DNA from: a phage
Strand: one strand, 5' to 3'
NCBI GenBank assembly: GCA_024571205.1
Contig: GCA_024571205.1_4523.1
DNA length: 64,000 nt
In this document: piece after piece, positions 3,098-27,484 of the stretch
Numbering within the stretch: the stretch's first letter is position 1
How the letters are laid out: every line of letters begins with the position of its first letter
Notes under the pieces: model-generated
What the model was told of the DNA's origin: nothing
The model's input: the letters and a program-made list of their open reading frames with translations, nothing else
The model's database searches: none
Made by a program: the position numbers and the translations under genes

Positions 3098-3646
3098 ATG
3101 GCTAAAATTATTTTAGTAGACGGCCCAGATAATGCTGGTAAAACAACTTTCATTAATGACATAATGGAAATTAGTGAAAGATATGTAAAGATTGATTTTC
3201 CTAAACGAACAGTTGATGGACGTTTCGATGTTAAGTCTCGAAATGAAGTTGGCTGTTTCGAAACGATGTTGAATTATTTAGACCCTACTAAGATTTATCT
3301 GTTAGACCGTGGATATATTAGTAACTGGGTTTATGGACGTATTCGGCAAGATGCGGACTCTGTTCTTGATGTTTATGAACAGGACTATGTTCGTCTTTGC
3401 CAAAACCATGATGTGTTCACAATTATTTTAACACGTAATGAAATGACTGAAAGTTTTGAAGACGACCTTATTACTTTGTCTTCATTCGGTTTTAATACAG
3501 TCATTTCACATTTTGAAGAGTTTGCAATTCATAACAAAATCCAAACGTATCAATTACTTAATCATGATGGTGCTAACAAAATTATAGGATTTAATGCAAG
3601 CGAACGTAATGGTTTGATTACAGAAATCATCAAATGGGCTCGTTAA
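3098..3646 (+). CDS. P-loop kinase, thymidylate-kinase-like (nucleotide/nucleoside kinase family)
   Basis: Walker A GPDNAGKTT near N-terminus; LLDRGYISNWVYG resembles the TMPK DRx..S..Y motif; 182 aa. Confidence 0.6.
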   Translation: MAKIILVDGPDNAGKTTFINDIMEISERYVKIDFPKRTVDGRFDVKSRNEVGCFETMLNYLDPTKIYLLDRGYISNWVYGRIRQDADSVLDVYEQDYVRLCQNHDVFTIILTRNEMTESFEDDLITLSSFGFNTVISHFEEFAIHNKIQTYQLLNHDGANKIIGFNASERNGLITEIIKWAR

Positions 3647-5260: not shown

Positions 5261-6703
5261 GTGGTAGAAATTATTTTGTCTCATCTAGTATATGACCAGG
5301 CTTATTTTTCTAAGGTCTGGCCTTATATGGATTCTGAGTATTTTGAGCGTGGACCGGCAAAAAATGTCTTTAAAATTATAAAGAGCCACGTTAACGAATA
5401 TAATGCAATGCCATCTATCAATGCATTAAAGGTGGCTTTAGATAACAGTTCTTTAACTGAAGCCGAATATAAAGGAACTTCGGACCTAATTGAAAAATTG
5501 GCTGATACTCCTGAAGACCACGAATGGTTGGTTAAAGAAACTGAGAAATATGTCCAGCAAAAAGCGATGTATAATGCTACATCCAAAATCATTGAGATTC
5601 AGTCTAATGCTGAACTACCTCCAGAACAACGTAACAAGAAAATGCCTGACGTAGGAGCTATTCCTGATATTATGCGTCAAGCACTTTCAATTTCGTTTGA
5701 TAGTTATGTTGGTCATGACTGGATGGAAGACTATGAAGCACGCTGGCTTTCTTATCTAAATAAAGCACGTAAGGTCCCGTTCAAATTAAACATTTTGAAT
5801 AAAATCACCAAAGGCGGTGCAGAAACAGGTACACTGAACGTTTTAATGGCCGGTGTTAACGTTGGTAAATCTTTAGGCCTTTGTTCACTTGCTGCAGATT
5901 ATCTTCAAACAGGACATAATGTTCTTTATATTTCCATGGAAATGGCTGAAGAAGTTTGTGCTAAGCGTATAGATGCAAACATGCTTGACGTATCACTCGA
6001 TGATATCGATGATGGTAATGTATCTTATGCTGAATATAAAGCCAAGATGGAAAAATGGCGTTCAAAATCAACATTAGGACGTTTAGTAGTCAAACAGTAT
6101 CCTACTGGTGGAGCTAATGCTAATACATTCCGTGCATTGCTTAATGAATTGAAACTCAAGAAGAACTTTGTGCCGTCTGTAATCATAGTCGATTACTTAG
6201 GTATTTGTGGGTCTTGTCGTATCAGAGTTTACACTGAAAATAGCTACACATTAGTTAAAGCTATCGCAGAAGAACTTCGTGCATTAGCAGTAGAATCTGA
6301 AACAGTTCTATGGACTGCAGCTCAAGTAGGACGTGCAGCATGGGATGCTTCAGACATGAACATGAGTGATATCGCAGAATCAGCAGGTTTACCAGCAACG
6401 GCAGATTTCATGTTGGCTGTAATTGAAACCGAAGAACTTGCACAAGCTGAACAACAACTTATCAAACAAATCAAATCACGATACGGTGATAAGAATAAGT
6501 GGAACAAGTTCTTGATGGGTGTACGTAAAGGCAATCAGAAATGGGTTGAGATTGAGCAAGAAGGCATGAACACACCTAACACGGTAAATGAAAACGCAGG
6601 TGCTCAGATGCGTCAGGCAGAGGTGAATCGCACGGAACGCGTAGGTAAAGCCAAAGCAACACGGGCGGACCTAGATAGCTTAGCCAATGAGTTAAAATTT
6701 TAA
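5261..6703 (+). CDS. 41: gp41 replicative DNA helicase (DnaB-like)
   Basis: GTG start after RBS AAGGAG; Walker A GVNVGKSLGL; N-terminus MVEIILSHL closely matches T4 gp41. Confidence 0.95.
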   Translation: MVEIILSHLVYDQAYFSKVWPYMDSEYFERGPAKNVFKIIKSHVNEYNAMPSINALKVALDNSSLTEAEYKGTSDLIEKLADTPEDHEWLVKETEKYVQQKAMYNATSKIIEIQSNAELPPEQRNKKMPDVGAIPDIMRQALSISFDSYVGHDWMEDYEARWLSYLNKARKVPFKLNILNKITKGGAETGTLNVLMAGVNVGKSLGLCSLAADYLQTGHNVLYISMEMAEEVCAKRIDANMLDVSLDDIDDGNVSYAEYKAKMEKWRSKSTLGRLVVKQYPTGGANANTFRALLNELKLKKNFVPSVIIVDYLGICGSCRIRVYTENSYTLVKAIAEELRALAVESETVLWTAAQVGRAAWDASDMNMSDIAESAGLPATADFMLAVIETEELAQAEQQLIKQIKSRYGDKNKWNKFLMGVRKGNQKWVEIEQEGMNTPNTVNENAGAQMRQAEVNRTERVGKAKATRADLDSLANELKF

Positions 6704-6706
6704 TAA

Positions 6707-6730
6707 AAAGGAGACTTCGGTCTCCTTTCG
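6707..6730 (+). terminator. intrinsic terminator hairpin (UUCG tetraloop)
   Basis: aaaGGAGACttcgGTCTCCttt directly after gene 41 stop. Confidence 0.6.
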
Positions 6731-6732
6731 GG

Positions 6733-6762
6733 GTTTACATCTTCCTCTAGGCATGATATGAT
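6733..6762 (+). promoter_or_regulatory. T4-early-type promoter
   Basis: GTTTAC at 6733, then tatgat -10 region; about 55 nt upstream of ATG 6792. Confidence 0.5.
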
Positions 6763-7166: not shown

Positions 7167-7195
7167 GTTTACTTCTCCAGTAGTTGTGTTATTAT
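7167..7195 (+). promoter_or_regulatory. T4-early-type promoter with flanking inverted repeat
   Basis: GTTTAC 7167-7172, 17-nt spacer, tattat 7190-7195; arms ttctccagtagttg (7173-7186) and caactactggagaa (7204-7217). Confidence 0.6.
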
Positions 7196-7221
7196 AGACC
7201 TATCAACTACTGGAGAACAAA

Positions 7222-7539
7222 ATGAAAACCATCGATTGTAAAGCAGAATTTAAGATTTTTTATCACGGTTCAAGTAGTTCAGCTAAAATCGAAAACATGC
7301 TTTGTCCTCCTGAAGAAACAGGAGTTCTGTCTGAAACCGGACGTAAGAAAAACTTGAATCGTGTATTCTTTACTGAAGATATCGGTTTAGCAAAGATTTA
7401 CGCAGGACGAGCAGCACGCTCTTATGGAGGTGAACCACGTCTCTATCGAGTAATTTCTCCGGTAGATGTAGTTCAAATGAATGATACTAAAGGTGCTAGC
7501 GTATACCACGCAACCTGGGCCTTCTGCGAGGAAATATGA
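7222..7539 (+). CDS. hypothetical protein, 105 aa
   Basis: ORF following a promoter; RBS GGAGAAC inside the downstream repeat arm. Confidence 0.6.
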   Translation: MKTIDCKAEFKIFYHGSSSSAKIENMLCPPEETGVLSETGRKKNLNRVFFTEDIGLAKIYAGRAARSYGGEPRLYRVISPVDVVQMNDTKGASVYHATWAFCEEI

Positions 7540-7748
7540 ACATTGTAGTATTTAAACCATCAACATACGAATTTGCATCAACTACACAATGGAAAGCTCT
7601 TATTCAGGAAGGATGGGAACTAATGATGGACTGCGAAGCATCTGAAAAGTTTCCACACGGCAAAGTGGACTTCGTTAAATTTGCTGTACGTCCGACCAAA
7701 CGTCAAATTCGTCAAGAAAAACGCAAATTTCGCAAAAGTTTAAAATAA
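7536..7748 (+). CDS. hypothetical protein, 70 aa, basic C-terminus
   Basis: ATGA overlap with upstream gene; C-terminal RQIRQEKRKFRKSLK. Confidence 0.5.
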   Translation: MNIVVFKPSTYEFASTTQWKALIQEGWELMMDCEASEKFPHGKVDFVKFAVRPTKRQIRQEKRKFRKSLK

Positions 7749-7750
7749 CC

Positions 7751-7780
7751 GTTTACAAGCACCACATACTGTGTTACTAT
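7751..7780 (+). promoter_or_regulatory. T4-early-type promoter
   Basis: GTTTAC 7751, 18-nt spacer, tactat 7775-7780; precedes ATG 7809. Confidence 0.6.
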
Positions 7781-7808
7781 CTTTCTATCAACTACAGAGG
7801 AAATTGAA

Positions 7809-8177
7809 ATGAAAAAATTAATCGCTTTAGCAATGGTATTCGGATTAACTGGATGTGGTGCTCATGGCTTTATTCCTAATAACGTAGGGCAACTGATTTA
7901 CAATCCAAATGTTAAACAGTATGAACAACCTAAAGTTGAAGTGGAAGACCCGGTTACTGTAGGTAATCGAATGATTCAAGCTGATGAACGTGCTCAAAGA
8001 TATCGTGACTCTGATACCGTAGCATTGTCAAAAGAACAACGTGTTCAAGAGCATTGTTTACAGGCCACTGAAATCGCATTTATTCGTTATGTTGAAACAA
8101 CAGGTAAAGAGCCTACTCAGCAACAAATCATGGCTAACTACGTCCAATGTATTGAACGTTTAAACAAATTTAATTAA
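7809..8177 (+). CDS. putative lipoprotein, 122 aa
   Basis: N-terminal signal peptide with lipobox LTGC. Confidence 0.65.
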   Translation: MKKLIALAMVFGLTGCGAHGFIPNNVGQLIYNPNVKQYEQPKVEVEDPVTVGNRMIQADERAQRYRDSDTVALSKEQRVQEHCLQATEIAFIRYVETTGKEPTQQQIMANYVQCIERLNKFN

Positions 8178-8180
8178 TTA

Positions 8181-8210
8181 GTTTACATCCAATTTAAAAC
8201 AAGATACTAT
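8181..8210 (+). promoter_or_regulatory. T4-early-type promoter
   Basis: GTTTAC 8181, 18-nt spacer, tactat 8205-8210; precedes ATG 8239. Confidence 0.6.
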
Positions 8211-8238
8211 AAACATATCAAATCAAGAGGAAATTATC

Positions 8239-8487
8239 ATGGAATTATTAGTAGTTAGTTCAGTAGCAGTTTTGATCGCAGGTATCGGTTCAATTATCAT
8301 TTACATGTTGCCTTGGGTTATCGCACTTATTCGTGGCACCAAAAGCACAACAGCAATCTTCTTCGTATCCTTACTCTTTAACTGGACGATGATTGGATGG
8401 ATTGGAACTTTAATTTGGTCTATCGCAGCAGAAAAGAAATCTGCCCAACAGACACAACAAGTAATTATTATTCGCGAAAAAGAATAA
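8239..8487 (+). CDS. small two-pass membrane protein, superinfection-immunity (Imm)-like
   Basis: 82 aa, two hydrophobic helices; motif YMLPWVIALIRG..IFFVSLLFNWTMIGWIGTLIWS resembles the Imm-type superinfection immunity family pattern as I recall it. Confidence 0.55.
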   Translation: MELLVVSSVAVLIAGIGSIIIYMLPWVIALIRGTKSTTAIFFVSLLFNWTMIGWIGTLIWSIAAEKKSAQQTQQVIIIREKE

Positions 8488-8491
8488 AACA

Positions 8492-8521
8492 GTTTACAAC
8501 GTTGATAGGTCATGTTACTAT
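8492..8521 (+). promoter_or_regulatory. T4-early-type promoter with flanking near-inverted repeat
   Basis: GTTTAC 8492, 18-nt spacer, tactat 8516-8521; arms gttgataggtc / gacttatcaac. Confidence 0.6.
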
Positions 8522-8548
8522 AGACTTATCAACTAATGGAGAACAAAA

Positions 8549-8707
8549 ATGAAACCTTCAAACTACGCAGTAAAAATTTGGAACGAAGTTAACGGTAATC
8601 GTGATGAATTTTTCAAAGTCATGATTGAGAAATTAGGTAAAAGTTTTAGCATTACAGAACGCAATTATTACGCTATTAAATCCACCCAATATAATCGTTA
8701 TGCTTAA
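8549..8707 (+). CDS. hypothetical protein, 52 aa
   Basis: Below the ORF-track cutoff; RBS GGAGAAC 7 nt before ATG; follows a promoter. Confidence 0.5.
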   Translation: MKPSNYAVKIWNEVNGNRDEFFKVMIEKLGKSFSITERNYYAIKSTQYNRYA

Positions 8708-8717
8708 GGAGAATATC

Positions 8718-9011
8718 ATGAAAAAGTTAACATTAGCAGCAATCTTACTAGCAGTGTCATGTGCACCAGCTCCAGTTACTGCCGGTTATGACAAAGACCT
8801 CTGTGAATGGTCAATGTCAGCAAATCAAGAAGATGTTGAACATCAAATCTTTGCCGATATCATGAACATCACTAAACGTGATCGCCCTAATATGGTTAAT
8901 AAAGTTGTAGAACAACTTCAGTCTGGTGGTATCATGCAGTACAACTATGTTTTGTATTGTGACCCTAATTTCGATAACAAAGATATCGTAACTGAAATCA
9001 CAGGTGAATAA
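8718..9011 (+). CDS. putative secreted protein or lipoprotein, 97 aa
   Basis: Start chosen at MKKLTL after RBS AAGGAG; signal peptide with AVSC lipobox-like cysteine. Confidence 0.6.
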   Translation: MKKLTLAAILLAVSCAPAPVTAGYDKDLCEWSMSANQEDVEHQIFADIMNITKRDRPNMVNKVVEQLQSGGIMQYNYVLYCDPNFDNKDIVTEITGE

Positions 9012-9663
9012 TATGATTTATTATATGCACAAAAATCCACCGTTTAAATACGGTAAATTTCCTGATGCACAATGTTATAATATAACGCCTGATGAAAATA
9101 ACCGTGGATATCTTATTGGCACAATTTTTGTAATTGTTAAAGATAACGAAATCGTTGCCTGGGCAGATTTTAAAGGTACAACACATGATGTTAATCCGGT
9201 GCCTTTCACATATTACAATATAATGGATTTGGCATACGATTATAATTGGTTTAATCATGACACGTTGGCTTATATTGAAGGTGTAGGATTTGATATCTCT
9301 TATTCTAGTTATTCATTATGTCCTATGAGCCGAGCACACGGTAAAGATACCTCATATTTTTCATTTAGGAAACGTGTGAACTTCAAACGTAGCACAGAGT
9401 ATGTCGGTGGAATATTTGTTAAAGATAATCGAATTACTCGTATTAGTTACCCTTTGAGCTGTGGCCAAAAAGATATTGACGTCGATTTAGACTTCACTGA
9501 AAATGTCATTAATCATATTGCTTCCGTATATTTTGACATCGATGAAAAAATTGTAGTGTGCGGTTACGAATTGCCACCGGAAGAAAAGATCGAAGCAATT
9601 GAAGTCGAATTAAAAGTTTCTATTGATGACCAAATCTTTAACGCATTTATGAATCGAGGTTAA
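9004..9663 (+). CDS. hypothetical protein, 219 aa
   Basis: Long ORF, AT-rich, no recognised motif. Confidence 0.6.
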   Translation: MNNMIYYMHKNPPFKYGKFPDAQCYNITPDENNRGYLIGTIFVIVKDNEIVAWADFKGTTHDVNPVPFTYYNIMDLAYDYNWFNHDTLAYIEGVGFDISYSSYSLCPMSRAHGKDTSYFSFRKRVNFKRSTEYVGGIFVKDNRITRISYPLSCGQKDIDVDLDFTENVINHIASVYFDIDEKIVVCGYELPPEEKIEAIEVELKVSIDDQIFNAFMNRG

Positions 9664-9664
9664 T

Positions 9665-9862
9665 ATGATTACTGCAACTTGTGCCGGCTCAAAAATTGAT
9701 GTGTTTCAATTGTTTGAAGAATATGAAATTGTTTCTAAGAACAAAGACTTTATTCAAGTTCGTGCTGACGATGGTACTGTCTGGAACATCCCCCATTATA
9801 ACGACGAGACCTATGAAGTCACAGATGCAAATGGTGACAAAGCAATCTTTGTGATTGATTAA
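9665..9862 (+). CDS. hypothetical protein, 65 aa
   Basis: Tightly packed downstream ORF (TAATATG junction). Confidence 0.5.
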   Translation: MITATCAGSKIDVFQLFEEYEIVSKNKDFIQVRADDGTVWNIPHYNDETYEVTDANGDKAIFVID

Positions 9863-9881
9863 ATATACTCAGGAGGTACCT

Positions 9882-10349
9882 ATGGGTATTATTAACACTG
9901 CAATAGATTCAGTTTATGCATATAAGTTTATTCGACTAATGCAAAAACCTTTTACCGAATGGAAAGCATACGAAGCCAAAATCATCGACGAACGTGGAAG
10001 TGTTCTTAAACGTCCTTCTACTCCTGAAGAGAAAGCGGCTTATACACCTTTCCATGCTTCAGTTCGTTCAATGAAACGAATGTTGAGCACTGTTCCCGGT
10101 CTTAATGGAATGGCCTCAATGATGTCCGCCTGGAGTGCTGTAGCATCCCGCTATAACATCACAGAAGAACAACAGAAAGAAATATTTAAAGAACTCCCTT
10201 TATTTGAGGATATGGTTGCTGGTGATTCAGGTGGCAGTCCTCAAGCTATTGCATCAGGAACTACTACAGGTGCAGTTGTAAATAAAGGTCCAGAACAAAT
10301 TCCTTCCAAGAAAAGAAAGCGAATTAAAGTAAATATCAATAAGTTGTGA
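9882..10349 (+). CDS. hypothetical protein, 155 aa
   Basis: Start moved to ATG 9882, which follows RBS AGGAGG; basic C-terminus KKRKRIK. Confidence 0.55.
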   Translation: MGIINTAIDSVYAYKFIRLMQKPFTEWKAYEAKIIDERGSVLKRPSTPEEKAAYTPFHASVRSMKRMLSTVPGLNGMASMMSAWSAVASRYNITEEQQKEIFKELPLFEDMVAGDSGGSPQAIASGTTTGAVVNKGPEQIPSKKRKRIKVNINKL

Positions 10350-10356
10350 TATGATG

Positions 10357-10388: not shown

Positions 10389-11411
10389 ATGGCTGAATGG
10401 ATAGATAATGAATTTGCTTATCGTGCGTTTTCTCACCTACCTCGTTTTAGACAAATCAATAATTCAAGCACATTTAAATTAACGTTTCGTTGTCCAGTTT
10501 GTGGCGACTCTCAGACAGATGCAATGAAAGCCCGCGGATGGTATTATGGCGGTACTCCAGGTAATGTGCATTGCTATAACTGTCAATATCATAATACGAT
10601 TTCCGGATACTTAAAAGAGTATGACGAAGAGCTTTATCGTGAATATCTAATGGAAGTTCGTAAAGAAAAAGCTAGAATGGAACCAAAGATTGAAAAGGTT
10701 CCTGAACATAAACCAGAACCGGAGAAAAAGACTATAAATTCTTTGCCGTCTTGTTCTCGTCTGGACAAGTTGCCTGAAGAGCATCCTATTGTGAAATATG
10801 TTAAGTCTCGGTGTATTCCTAAAGAATCGTGGAACAGATTATGGTTCACATTAGAATGGCCTAAATTGGTCAACAAGATTCAACCAGGCACGTATAAGAA
10901 AGAGATTCCAGAACCGCGTTTAGTGATTCCTATTTTTAATAAAGACGGGAAGGCTGAGTCATTTCAAGGACGTGCACTTCGCAAAGATGCTCCTCAGAAA
11001 TATATAACTATTAAAGCGTTTGAGTCTGCAACAAAAATTTATGGTGTTGAACGTGTTAAGGAAGGAGACGTCTGGGTAATGGAAGGCCCTATTGATAGTT
11101 TATTCATACCCAATGCAATCGCTATTACAGGCGGTTCAATAGATTTAGATGTGGTACCATTTAAAGAACGTCGGGTATGGGTGATGGATAATGAACCTAG
11201 GCATCCGGATACTATAGCTCGTATGAAGCGATTAGTAGATGCAGGCGAACGTGTTATGTTCTGGGACCGAGCTCCATGGAGTTCAAAGGATGTGAATGAT
11301 ATGGTAATGAAAGAAAATGCAACACCACAAGAAATTTTAGAATATATGAAACAGAATATTTCAAGTGGGTTGCATGCTAAAATGAGATTATCTCGTTATT
11401 CGAAGATTTAA
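10389..11411 (+). CDS. 61: gp61 DNA primase
   Basis: N-terminal zinc ribbon CPVCGDS..CYNC and TOPRIM-like C-terminal part; strong match to recalled T4 gp61. Confidence 0.9.
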   Translation: MAEWIDNEFAYRAFSHLPRFRQINNSSTFKLTFRCPVCGDSQTDAMKARGWYYGGTPGNVHCYNCQYHNTISGYLKEYDEELYREYLMEVRKEKARMEPKIEKVPEHKPEPEKKTINSLPSCSRLDKLPEEHPIVKYVKSRCIPKESWNRLWFTLEWPKLVNKIQPGTYKKEIPEPRLVIPIFNKDGKAESFQGRALRKDAPQKYITIKAFESATKIYGVERVKEGDVWVMEGPIDSLFIPNAIAITGGSIDLDVVPFKERRVWVMDNEPRHPDTIARMKRLVDAGERVMFWDRAPWSSKDVNDMVMKENATPQEILEYMKQNISSGLHAKMRLSRYSKI

Positions 11412-25270: not shown

Positions 25271-27484
25271 ATGATTATTGAAACGGCTAAAGAAACGATT
25301 ATTGGTTCAGGCGGTAAGAGCACAGCATTCACTATTCAAGGCAATAGCAAAGTTTATAAGATTTTGTCTAATGACCTTTATACAAACAAAGAATTGGCTT
25401 GTGTACGTGAATTAATTACAAACTGTATCGATGGACAAATTCTTAACGGTTGCACTGATAAGTTTATTGTTCAGGCTCCAGGTCGTTTAGACCCACGTTT
25501 TGTAGTTCGAGACTTTGGTCCTGGTATGAGTGATTTCACCATTAGAGGTAATGACGAAGAGCCAGGAATCTATAACTCATATTTTGCTTCAACTAAAACA
25601 TCGAGTAACGATTTCATCGGTGGATTCGGACTCGGCTCTAAAGCTCCGCTAGCATATACCGATACGTTTAACCTTACGTCTTATCACAATGGTGAAGTTC
25701 GTGGTTACGTAATCTACCAAGATGACACGGGTCCACAAATTAAGCCGACCTTTGTAGATAAGATGGGTCCTGATGACCGTACGGGTGTAGAAGTAGTCGT
25801 ACCGGTTAACCCGGAAGATTTTGAAAAGTTTGCATCCGAAATTGCATATGTTATGCGTCCTCTAGGTGATATTGCAGAAGTTCGTGGTGTTAAAGATATC
25901 AAATACTTCCCGGAATTTGACGATGTATATTTGGCCAAGGAAGCTCCATGGGGTGAACGTGGTAATATCATGGCTGTTTATGGTGGTATTGTATATCCGA
26001 TCGGAAGTGTTATTAAAGAACAAACATGGATGATGACGCGATGCACTACAGCTTATATTAAATTCCCTATGGGTGAACTAGATGTAGCCCCGTCTCGTGA
26101 AGCATTGTCATTTGATAAACGTACAGTAGCAAATATCCATAAACGTGTTGCAGAAATCGATGCTAAATTGTTCGCTGAAGATTCTAAGAAATGGATTGAT
26201 TGTAAATACCCACGCCATGTGTTCCGTGAAATTGATTCTCTTGGCTATACCGCTCGTAAATACATGGAAAAGGCCGGGTCCAATATTGAATCACTGAAAT
26301 ACTCTAAAGAACAACTAACTTATTCTGAGTTGTACAAACGTTTTAAAATGGGGCCTGAGTGGTGTAATCTTGGCGTCGTATACGATATCGTTGAATCCCC
26401 TCGTCTTCGTCGTATTCGTGAAAGTGGTAGCTCAACGACAACCATTTCAATTAACAGTTTGATTGGCATTAACATTAAAAACGTTGAAATTGTTATTGAC
26501 GACGTTAAGGGACGCGTTCCATTAATGCGAGCTCTTAATTCAATTGAAATGTCTAAAGACGAGGTTAAATTAACTGGTAAAGTTCCACGCGGTTTTGGTA
26601 AAAGTGTACTATTCGTTGACCCTACAGACGAAGATGCAATGAAACTTCTGGAACGCCTTAAAGTTATCTTTGATGGCGACAACATTAACATGTACAAGAC
26701 TTCAGAGCTTTTACAAATCGTTAAGCCATGGATTGAAGTCAGGAAACGGACTAATGAGCCTCGTCCTAAATCGCCAAGTGCTCATCGATTCTTTAAGAAT
26801 GAAAACGATGTTTGGGTATCAGAAGACCTCTTTATTTCGGCAAGTGAAGCAGATGAAATCCAAGGTTATGCTATAGTTCGTAATCGTTCTAATGCTGAAT
26901 GTCTTGACGCAGATAAAGGTTGGTTGAACTATGATTCTAATTTCTTGACTCGTATTGCCGATTTGTCAGGTATTAAAGAGTTCACTGTAGTTCGCCCACA
27001 GATTGCTAAGAAAGTTCGTAAACTTGGTGAAGTAGAATGTTTGTTTGAAAAATCAATTAACGACTATATTATGCTAATCGATAAAGTAGATTATGATGAG
27101 TATGTATCACCAAGTCGTAGAGCTCAACCTTATTTGAATCATATTACTCGTAATGAAGAGCTTAACTTCCTTAGTAAGTATTTTAGCTCTAAAAACAAAG
27201 AAATCAGTAAAGATTTTGCAAAACTCTCAACAGTAAATAATCGTTGGGGATGGAATCGATTCTCAGGTGCTACTAACAGAGAACTGAATAAAAAGTTAGA
27301 ACTATGTGCTAAAATTTTCGATAAGCTTAAAGATAACGCTTACGATAATGATGATAAAATGGTTATTGAATTCGAAACCAATTATCATATTGTGTCAGAA
27401 TACATGGGACGACGTGGTACTCTTTCTAAAGAACAGGTCGCTCAAATCGTTAAATTCATGAAGGCCGTGGAAGCGGCCAAATAA
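25271..27484 (+). CDS. rIIA: rIIA protein
   Basis: 737 aa; N-terminus MIIETAKETIIGSGGKS..VRELITNCIDG (GHKL-like), matches recalled T4 rIIA. Confidence 0.9.
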   Translation: MIIETAKETIIGSGGKSTAFTIQGNSKVYKILSNDLYTNKELACVRELITNCIDGQILNGCTDKFIVQAPGRLDPRFVVRDFGPGMSDFTIRGNDEEPGIYNSYFASTKTSSNDFIGGFGLGSKAPLAYTDTFNLTSYHNGEVRGYVIYQDDTGPQIKPTFVDKMGPDDRTGVEVVVPVNPEDFEKFASEIAYVMRPLGDIAEVRGVKDIKYFPEFDDVYLAKEAPWGERGNIMAVYGGIVYPIGSVIKEQTWMMTRCTTAYIKFPMGELDVAPSREALSFDKRTVANIHKRVAEIDAKLFAEDSKKWIDCKYPRHVFREIDSLGYTARKYMEKAGSNIESLKYSKEQLTYSELYKRFKMGPEWCNLGVVYDIVESPRLRRIRESGSSTTTISINSLIGINIKNVEIVIDDVKGRVPLMRALNSIEMSKDEVKLTGKVPRGFGKSVLFVDPTDEDAMKLLERLKVIFDGDNINMYKTSELLQIVKPWIEVRKRTNEPRPKSPSAHRFFKNENDVWVSEDLFISASEADEIQGYAIVRNRSNAECLDADKGWLNYDSNFLTRIADLSGIKEFTVVRPQIAKKVRKLGEVECLFEKSINDYIMLIDKVDYDEYVSPSRRAQPYLNHITRNEELNFLSKYFSSKNKEISKDFAKLSTVNNRWGWNRFSGATNRELNKKLELCAKIFDKLKDNAYDNDDKMVIEFETNYHIVSEYMGRRGTLSKEQVAQIVKFMKAVEAAK

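Follow-up and report, generated by a model that had tools for sequence, protein, structure and literature searches.

A T4-type superinfection-immunity gene between 61.4 and sp in a Mosigvirus genome: a lineage-wide arrangement that differs from T4

The window, by which we mean the whole 64-kb stretch of phage DNA analysed here, is 98.8% identical over its first 25 kb to Escherichia phage PECP20 and approximately 96% identical to many other RB69-like phages; on this basis it is assigned to a Mosigvirus (RB69-like T-even phage) genome, with the genus Mosigvirus and the subfamily Tevenvirinae taken from the classification of HX01 and RB69. All features described below lie on the plus strand, where the gene order runs in the direction of early transcription. 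Near the left end, a U32-family ORF (42-1202; Pfam PF01136, 42.2 bits) and a 79-aa ORF with no Pfam match (1199-1438) precede the thymidylate-synthase-like homologue of "gene 42" (1481-2197), an order that the preliminary description of this DNA had given correctly. Two further ORFs follow, then uvsX, 40 and 41 (gene 41 at 5261-6703) and two small ORFs. The segment of interest begins with a 61.4 homologue (7536-7748; DUF7279), followed by imm.1, encoding a 122-aa predicted lipoprotein (7809-8177; DUF5481, phrog_1754), imm (8239-8487), a 52-aa ORF (8549-8707) and sp, also called 61.3 or spackle (8718-9011; Pfam PF25676 T4_Spackle, E=7.5e-42; phrog_1586). Beyond these lie a homologue of 61.2, which encodes AdfA (9013-9663), a 65-aa ORF, 61.1 and the primase gene 61 (10389-11411), which forms the right end of the 41-61 interval. 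Spackle is the next recognisable gene after imm, at a distance of about 230 bp.

The imm gene starts with ATG and is predicted to encode an 82-aa inner-membrane superinfection-immunity protein. The preliminary description had named the family from two strings close to the consensus of the superinfection-immunity (Imm) family, YMLPWVIALIRG...IFFVSLLFNWTMIGWIGTLIWS, which are present exactly in the translated ORF at 8239-8487, and the profile search that it proposed as a check upheld the assignment. Pfam model PF14373 (Imm_superinfect) matched with E=1.4e-15 and 57.3 bits against a gathering cut-off of 27.9, with model positions 1-42 of 42 covered by residues 21-62, and PHROG 1039 ("immunity to superinfection") matched with E=6e-30. 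In BLASTP, the protein was identical to T4 Imm (NP_049660.1) at 54 of 83 positions (65%, E=8e-37), in an alignment that runs end to end (residues 1-82 against 1-83, with one gap). Such full-length, collinear similarity indicates an orthologue rather than a relative that shares only a domain, and we annotate the ORF as the orthologue of T4 imm and a member of the Imm family. A tblastn search found one copy of imm in the 64-kb window. The family itself is broad: a single-sequence search of a large protein database returned 12 close homologues, and a profile search extended the set to 604 proteins at E<=0.001, among them products of chromosomal genes in Maricaulis, Oceanicaulis and Pseudomonas. 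A sequence search of the PDB with the window Imm gave no match at E<=1, and a PADLOC-DB scan of Imm.1, Imm, the 52-aa ORF product, Sp and the products of two upstream ORFs gave none at E<=0.01.

In hydropathy analysis of the window Imm, residues 3-31 and 39-64 stood out as hydrophobic, with the sequence RGTKSTT between these two stretches and a polar tail after them; the 19-residue Kyte-Doolittle means reach 2.69 within residues 3-31 and 1.64 within residues 40-59. The earlier characterization as a two-helix membrane protein agrees with this profile, but it is only approximate, since an AlphaFold2 model built with 41 homologues (mean pLDDT 81.6) splits the hydrophobic stretches into four short helices (2-22, 24-32, 37-47 and 51-63). 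T4 Imm is described as having an N-terminal helix with a periplasmic N-terminus and a conserved hydrophobic helical core (bioRxiv 10.64898/2026.03.06.709160), and the four-helix model is in agreement with this helix-1-plus-core arrangement. The window Imm is accordingly modelled as a small integral membrane protein with an N-terminal transmembrane helix and a hydrophobic helical core. Residues R33 and W50 of T4 Imm are both retained, as R32 and W49; R32 does not vary in either of two family alignments (16 and 41 homologues), and W49 reaches a conservation of at least 90%.

For T4, a recent preprint reports that Imm co-purifies with a fragment of the tape-measure protein, gp29(205-518), that the bound complex was reconstructed by cryo-EM, and that the substitutions R33A and W50A lower exclusion (bioRxiv 10.64898/2026.03.06.709160). 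The tape-measure mechanism comes from this one T4 preprint, in which the dimer map is at ~6 Å and the models are of low resolution (bioRxiv 10.64898/2026.03.06.709160). The second T4 factor, Spackle, acts in the periplasm, where it inhibits the tail lysozyme gp5 (PMC7677548). By analogy, we infer that the window Imm has exclusion activity and a tape-measure target, with the same mechanism as in T4. The gene would be transcribed early from its own sigma-70-type early promoter, and the 82-aa product would insert into the inner membrane of the infected cell, with an N-terminal transmembrane helix that leads into a compact hydrophobic core of three helices. There it would prevent related phages that arrive later from passing their DNA across the inner membrane, presumably by attaching to the helical-bundle domain of their gp29 and thus keeping the translocation pore shut, and Spackle would act alongside it by inhibiting the gp5 tail lysozyme in the periplasm. 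We found in the literature no experiment on this Imm or on any Mosigvirus Imm. RB69 gp29 is 59% identical to T4 gp29 overall and 63% identical over residues 205-518, a divergence about equal to that of Imm (65% identical); with Imm at 65% and gp29 at 59% identity to T4, neither target range nor cross-exclusion is predictable. RB69 is also described as lacking lysis inhibition (PMC6832632), which implies that phenotypes linked to secondary adsorption differ from those in T4.

The strongest competitor to a block of DNA entry is that, in Mosigvirus, this Imm-family protein mainly protects the membrane against secondary traumatization or sets the timing of lysis. Imm is reportedly holin-like and imm mutants are partly defective in lysis inhibition (PMC6832632), the same review offers the speculation that Imm guards the membrane against damage by secondary adsorption (PMC6832632), and the window Imm is indeed small and very hydrophobic. 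Against this, the T4 preprint offers direct tape-measure binding together with exclusion-reducing point mutants, and the residues concerned are conserved in the window Imm; moreover, RB69 shows no lysis inhibition at all (PMC6832632), which makes a role dedicated to lysis inhibition unlikely in this lineage. Membrane protection and a DNA-entry block are not mutually exclusive, but as the main role of the protein we consider the former improbable.

Turning to gene order, the T4 gene was found between genes 43 and 42, so that it does adjoin gene 42 as had been stated, whereas the window imm sits between 61.4 and sp, which bears out its description as relocated to the 41-61 region. The T4-type order 43-imm.1-imm-42 was not seen in the window. 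The order present is 41...61.4-imm.1-imm-sp-61.2...61, the same as in RB69, HX01 and PECP20, with two local departures from the RB69 type: dmd is missing, and the extra 52-aa ORF lies between imm and sp. In the RB69 reference NC_004928, the genes annotated between gp61.4 and sp are imm.1 (RB69p037) and imm (RB69p036), and the label "immunity to superinfection" stands at the same place in the records of HX01, PECP20, moskry, vB_Eco_mar005P1 and others that we examined. In the phage collection, positions 7400-8800 of the window were matched by 155 records at 90-95% nucleotide identity, and an Imm at least 80% identical to the window Imm was likewise encoded in 155 records; given that the two counts are equal, the 61.4-sp context appears to be the consistent location of the Mosigvirus-type Imm. 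From these comparisons, the relocation relative to T4 is judged real but lineage-wide, the normal Mosigvirus arrangement and not a peculiarity of the window. Both the gene and its RB69-type position are already known from reference annotation. Our literature search found no published statement of an imm relocation, the position being documented by database annotations only, and imm, spackle and superinfection all go unmentioned in a comparison of five genomes, RB69 among them (PMC1524935). Genomic position is not a defining feature of the Imm family; it defines the T4-like arrangement only.

To judge which position is the older one, we compared other genera. The gene directly follows gene 43 in T4 (Tequatrovirus), JS98 (Dhakavirus), S16 (Gelderlandvirus), CJ20 (Gaprivervirus) and Klebsiella phage Roth76, and it lies within the 43-42 interval in Serratia phage PS2 (Muldoonvirus). 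With six sampled non-Mosigvirus lineages holding imm in the 43-42 interval, parsimony points to that slot as ancestral and to the Mosigvirus position as derived. A 36-aa hydrophobic mini-ORF with the consensus M..IYW....P.MIPT.I.GW......Q.KYECFN follows imm in T4, JS98 and CJ20. In RB69, ORF055c directly follows gene 43 and the mini-ORF, as ORF054c, then follows ORF055c; the RB69 DNA at the mini-ORF retains 65 bp that are 75% identical to the T4 imm-42 spacer. The mini-ORF is annotated in JS98 as orf44, "similar to RB69 orf054c", and is unannotated in T4 and CJ20; from its conservation, it is probably a real gene for a small membrane protein. The T4 copy (NC_000866), MIIISIYYSVTVPLMIPTIILGWSLLLLQVKYECIN, lies at 26220-26372 inside the "imm-42 intercistronic region", and the CJ20 copy is at 3217-3364. 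By its neighbours, the mini-ORF is taken to mark the vacated imm slot next to gene 43. The exact T4 slot, after gene 43 and upstream of the mini-ORF, falls just outside the left end of the window.

What now occupies that slot in RB69 is part of the DNA-hypermodification machinery. [quoted passage not shown] This region lies between the ancestral imm slot and the gene-42 homologue, and the window starts inside it. The window's U32-like ORF (42-1202) is the counterpart of RB69 ORF050c, within the gp45-gp55 region. The "gene 42" homologue (1481-2197) is the counterpart of RB69 gp48, which was shown in a 2026 NAR paper to be a 5-hydroxy-dCMP synthase, not a dCMP hydroxymethylase (PMC13326640). Because the RB69 slot is filled by a DNA-hypermodification gene while imm.1 and imm are found elsewhere, displacement rather than loss is indicated; the preliminary description had left it at "displaced or replaced", and only the first of these holds, as imm moved together with its partner imm.1. 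In the proposed scenario, a two-gene unit imm.1-imm would have left the slot downstream of gene 43 in the Mosigvirus lineage and entered the plastic 41-61 region, with 61.4 on one side and sp on the other.

A move in the reverse direction, with the 61.4-sp position beside spackle ancestral and imm carried into the 43-42 interval in T4 and other genera, has some appeal in that both exclusion genes would stand side by side in a tidy functional cluster. However, all six sampled lineages (T4, JS98, S16, PS2, Roth76 and CJ20) hold imm between 43 and 42, so this direction needs several independent moves of imm into the same slot, and RB69 keeps the 36-aa mini-ORF that flanks imm elsewhere, now beside ORF055c, as fits excision or replacement in RB69. 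We regard it as very improbable. Our overall reading, which we hold to be very likely, is instead that the Mosigvirus imm is an early gene for an inner-membrane protein that blocks entry of the superinfecting genome by binding the tape-measure protein, and that its position is derived, having moved as imm.1-imm.

The window Imm.1 is 33% identical to T4 Imm.1 (E=1e-19) and matches DUF5481 in Pfam with 38.9 bits against a cut-off of 27; read from the translation, it carries the lipobox LTGC with Cys16. Its lipoprotein signal, MKKLIALAMVFGLTG then C, is of the textbook type with Gly at +2. A DUF5481 gene precedes imm in both T4 and the window, and the genes upstream of imm in S16, Roth76 and PS2 gave no DUF5481 match, which limits the imm.1-imm pair to Tequatrovirus and Mosigvirus among the sampled phages. 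As the pair is common to these two genera at different places, the most economical explanation is a joint move of both genes as one unit.

Early-promoter-like motifs were found ahead of both genes. A consensus scan placed one for imm.1 at 7752-7780, and the one for imm at 8182-8210, (G)TTTACA-N17-TACTAT, is a consensus match only; a Shine-Dalgarno sequence, GAGGA (8227-8231), was read 7 nt before the imm ATG. These belong to a module of about 60 nt that is present in every intergenic gap of the 41-61 interval and consists of GTTTAC, 17-18 nt, TA(c/t)TAT, ...TATCAA..., GAGGA and ATG. Across the region, the consensus scan returned 21 T4-early-type promoter-like matches against 13.7 expected. A GGAGAC-TTCG-GTCTCC stem-loop after gene 41 (6708-6730) is the only clear stem-loop among the junctions. 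Within 6708-6762, this stem-loop is followed at once by a promoter-like motif, GTTTACA-N17-TATGAT, giving a terminator plus promoter in the layout of a PeSL. In T4-type phages, promoter/stem-loop cassettes (PeSLs) have been shown to mediate insertion, loss and exchange of small early genes (PMC2839356, PMC4122927), and by analogy PeSL-type recombination is most likely the route by which imm.1-imm was relocated; the exchange would have used the early-promoter modules, nearly identical to one another, that lie between all genes of the region. The 63-nt module of imm.1 is 78% identical to the module in the JS98 43-imm intergenic region, against a background among modules of 54-78%. Comparison of the ~60-nt modules did not identify the recombination junctions: all pairs from different sites are 54-78% identical, and the top pair between genomes (window 61.4-imm.1 against JS98 43-imm, 78%) does not surpass the top pair of unrelated modules within the window. 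This similarity is too uniform for the actual junctions to be identifiable. When the window cassette was aligned to the T4 43-42 interval, only 136 bp aligned (76%), inside the imm coding region, so the flanks are uninformative.

Within this lineage-wide arrangement, the window carries an unusual allele of the segment. Roughly 3 kb (~7450-10350) diverged from PECP20, while the flanking genes uvsX, 40, 41, orf124 and 61 are 99.7-100% identical. Nucleotide identity to PECP20 is 92.5% for 61.4, 90.2% for imm.1, 92.8% for imm, 92.9% for sp, 88.8% for 61.2, 73.7% for orf65 and 95.3% for 61.1, and we interpret the segment as a recombinant patch, the result of an exchange with an unsampled relative that took in the whole block of exclusion and counter-defence genes. 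Between the window imm and that of PECP20, 12 codon differences are synonymous and 4 non-synonymous, as expected under purifying selection on imm. None of the records in the phage collection covers 80% or more of window positions 7400-8800. An identical Imm with the same neighbours was found on a 53-kb Logan contig from run SRR20718339, and this contig, having the same arrangement, indicates that the arrangement in the window is real.

The first of the two local departures concerns dmd, the antitoxin gene against RnlA/LsoA, which tblastn with PECP20 and T4 Dmd did not find in the 64-kb window. It lies between orf105 and 61.4 in RB69, HX01 and PECP20, and the window has instead a junction at 7539/7548; unless a dmd gene is encoded beyond the window, this phage may be sensitive to hosts with rnlAB/lsoAB. 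The second is a 206-bp insertion (8499-8704) between imm and sp that carries the 52-aa ORF and has its own promoter-like module, GTTTAC-N17-TACTAT at 8493-8521, 78% like the module at 7167-7221. The 52-aa product had no match in Pfam, PHROG or PADLOC, and its homologues (54% identical) occur only in about 20 phage records; in the one Gaprivervirus vB_EcoM_RZ record examined, the homologue lies in the rIIB-denB-ndd region. From its makeup, the insertion looks like a mobile early-gene cassette. In the same patch, the window AdfA (61.2) has His at the equivalent of RB69 AdfA Arg164, a position at which RB69 and PECP20 have Arg. The T4-type His allele of AdfA is reported to neutralise DarT1, Arg being the inactive type (PMC11257639). 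That imm itself is a decaying or non-expressed remnant left after relocation might be suspected from its place in a hyperplastic region of gene gain and loss, with dmd missing and an ORFan inserted next to it, but this is the least credible of the alternatives, given an intact, full-length reading frame with start and stop both conserved across the examined Mosigvirus records and homologues, an Imm type carried by 155 records with mostly synonymous substitutions and conserved key residues, and a promoter-like motif and ribosome-binding site of its own.

As annotated, Imm.1, Imm and Spackle form a predicted early cluster of envelope proteins, with promoter-like motifs assigned by consensus, that is interrupted by the 52-aa ORF. 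The pair imm.1-imm was kept together through relocation and now stands near sp, which could mean that Imm.1 is the working partner of Imm and that the two form a three-layer exclusion module with Spackle, each expressed from a separate early promoter; we think this doubtful. If true, the module would combine a lipoprotein anchored on the periplasmic side, a protein of the inner membrane and a soluble inhibitor in the periplasm. There is also a possibility that the window allele, lying in the 3-kb recombinant patch, differs in exclusion specificity from those of other Mosigviruses. Nothing in the sequence demands either a partnership with Imm.1 or an altered exclusion range.

The identification of imm in this genome is correct but ordinary, and it matters little beyond correct annotation. 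It does provide a clear case, with well-defined limits, of the shuffling of small early-gene cassettes by T-even phages. Where phage cocktails are concerned, the Imm of a Mosigvirus (65% identical to that of T4) may or may not cross-exclude Tequatroviruses (gp29 59% identical), and now that the target of T4 Imm has been identified, cross-exclusion between Mosigvirus and Tequatrovirus is directly testable.

Among known systems, the closest are the other Mosigvirus genes. In RB69 (NP_861726.1), HX01, PECP20, p000v and others, imm is the same 82-aa gene with the same neighbours 61.4, imm.1, imm and sp, and their Imm proteins are 91-96% identical to that of the window. Compared with these, the window imm is a divergent allele, 92.8% identical in nucleotides to PECP20 where the flanking 41 and 61 are 99.7-100% identical, and the phage-collection records contain no identical Imm protein, the best match being 96.3%. 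T4 Imm shares with the window Imm the hydrophobic pattern, the conserved motif YxLPW...R-G/K...W...GW...W, to which T4 R33 and W50 belong, and the upstream partner imm.1, but the order is 43-imm.1-imm-42 in T4 and 41...61.4-imm.1-imm-(ORF52)-sp...61 in the window phage. The spacing between imm.1 and imm also differs, at 11 bp with no promoter between the genes in T4 and 61 bp with a promoter-like module in the window. In addition, T4 has a 94-aa form of Imm, whereas the window imm has no comparable upstream in-frame start, as its ORF begins at the first start codon after a stop. T4 Spackle (gp61.3), an early envelope protein and the other superinfection-exclusion factor of T4, has its counterpart next to imm in the window phage, yet it is unrelated to Imm, being a soluble periplasmic inhibitor of the gp5 lysozyme that does not act at the inner membrane. 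Finally, the analogous membrane proteins discussed in the T4 preprint block a membrane-inserting partner, either a tape-measure protein or a colicin pore domain, and are likened to Imm for their mechanism only.
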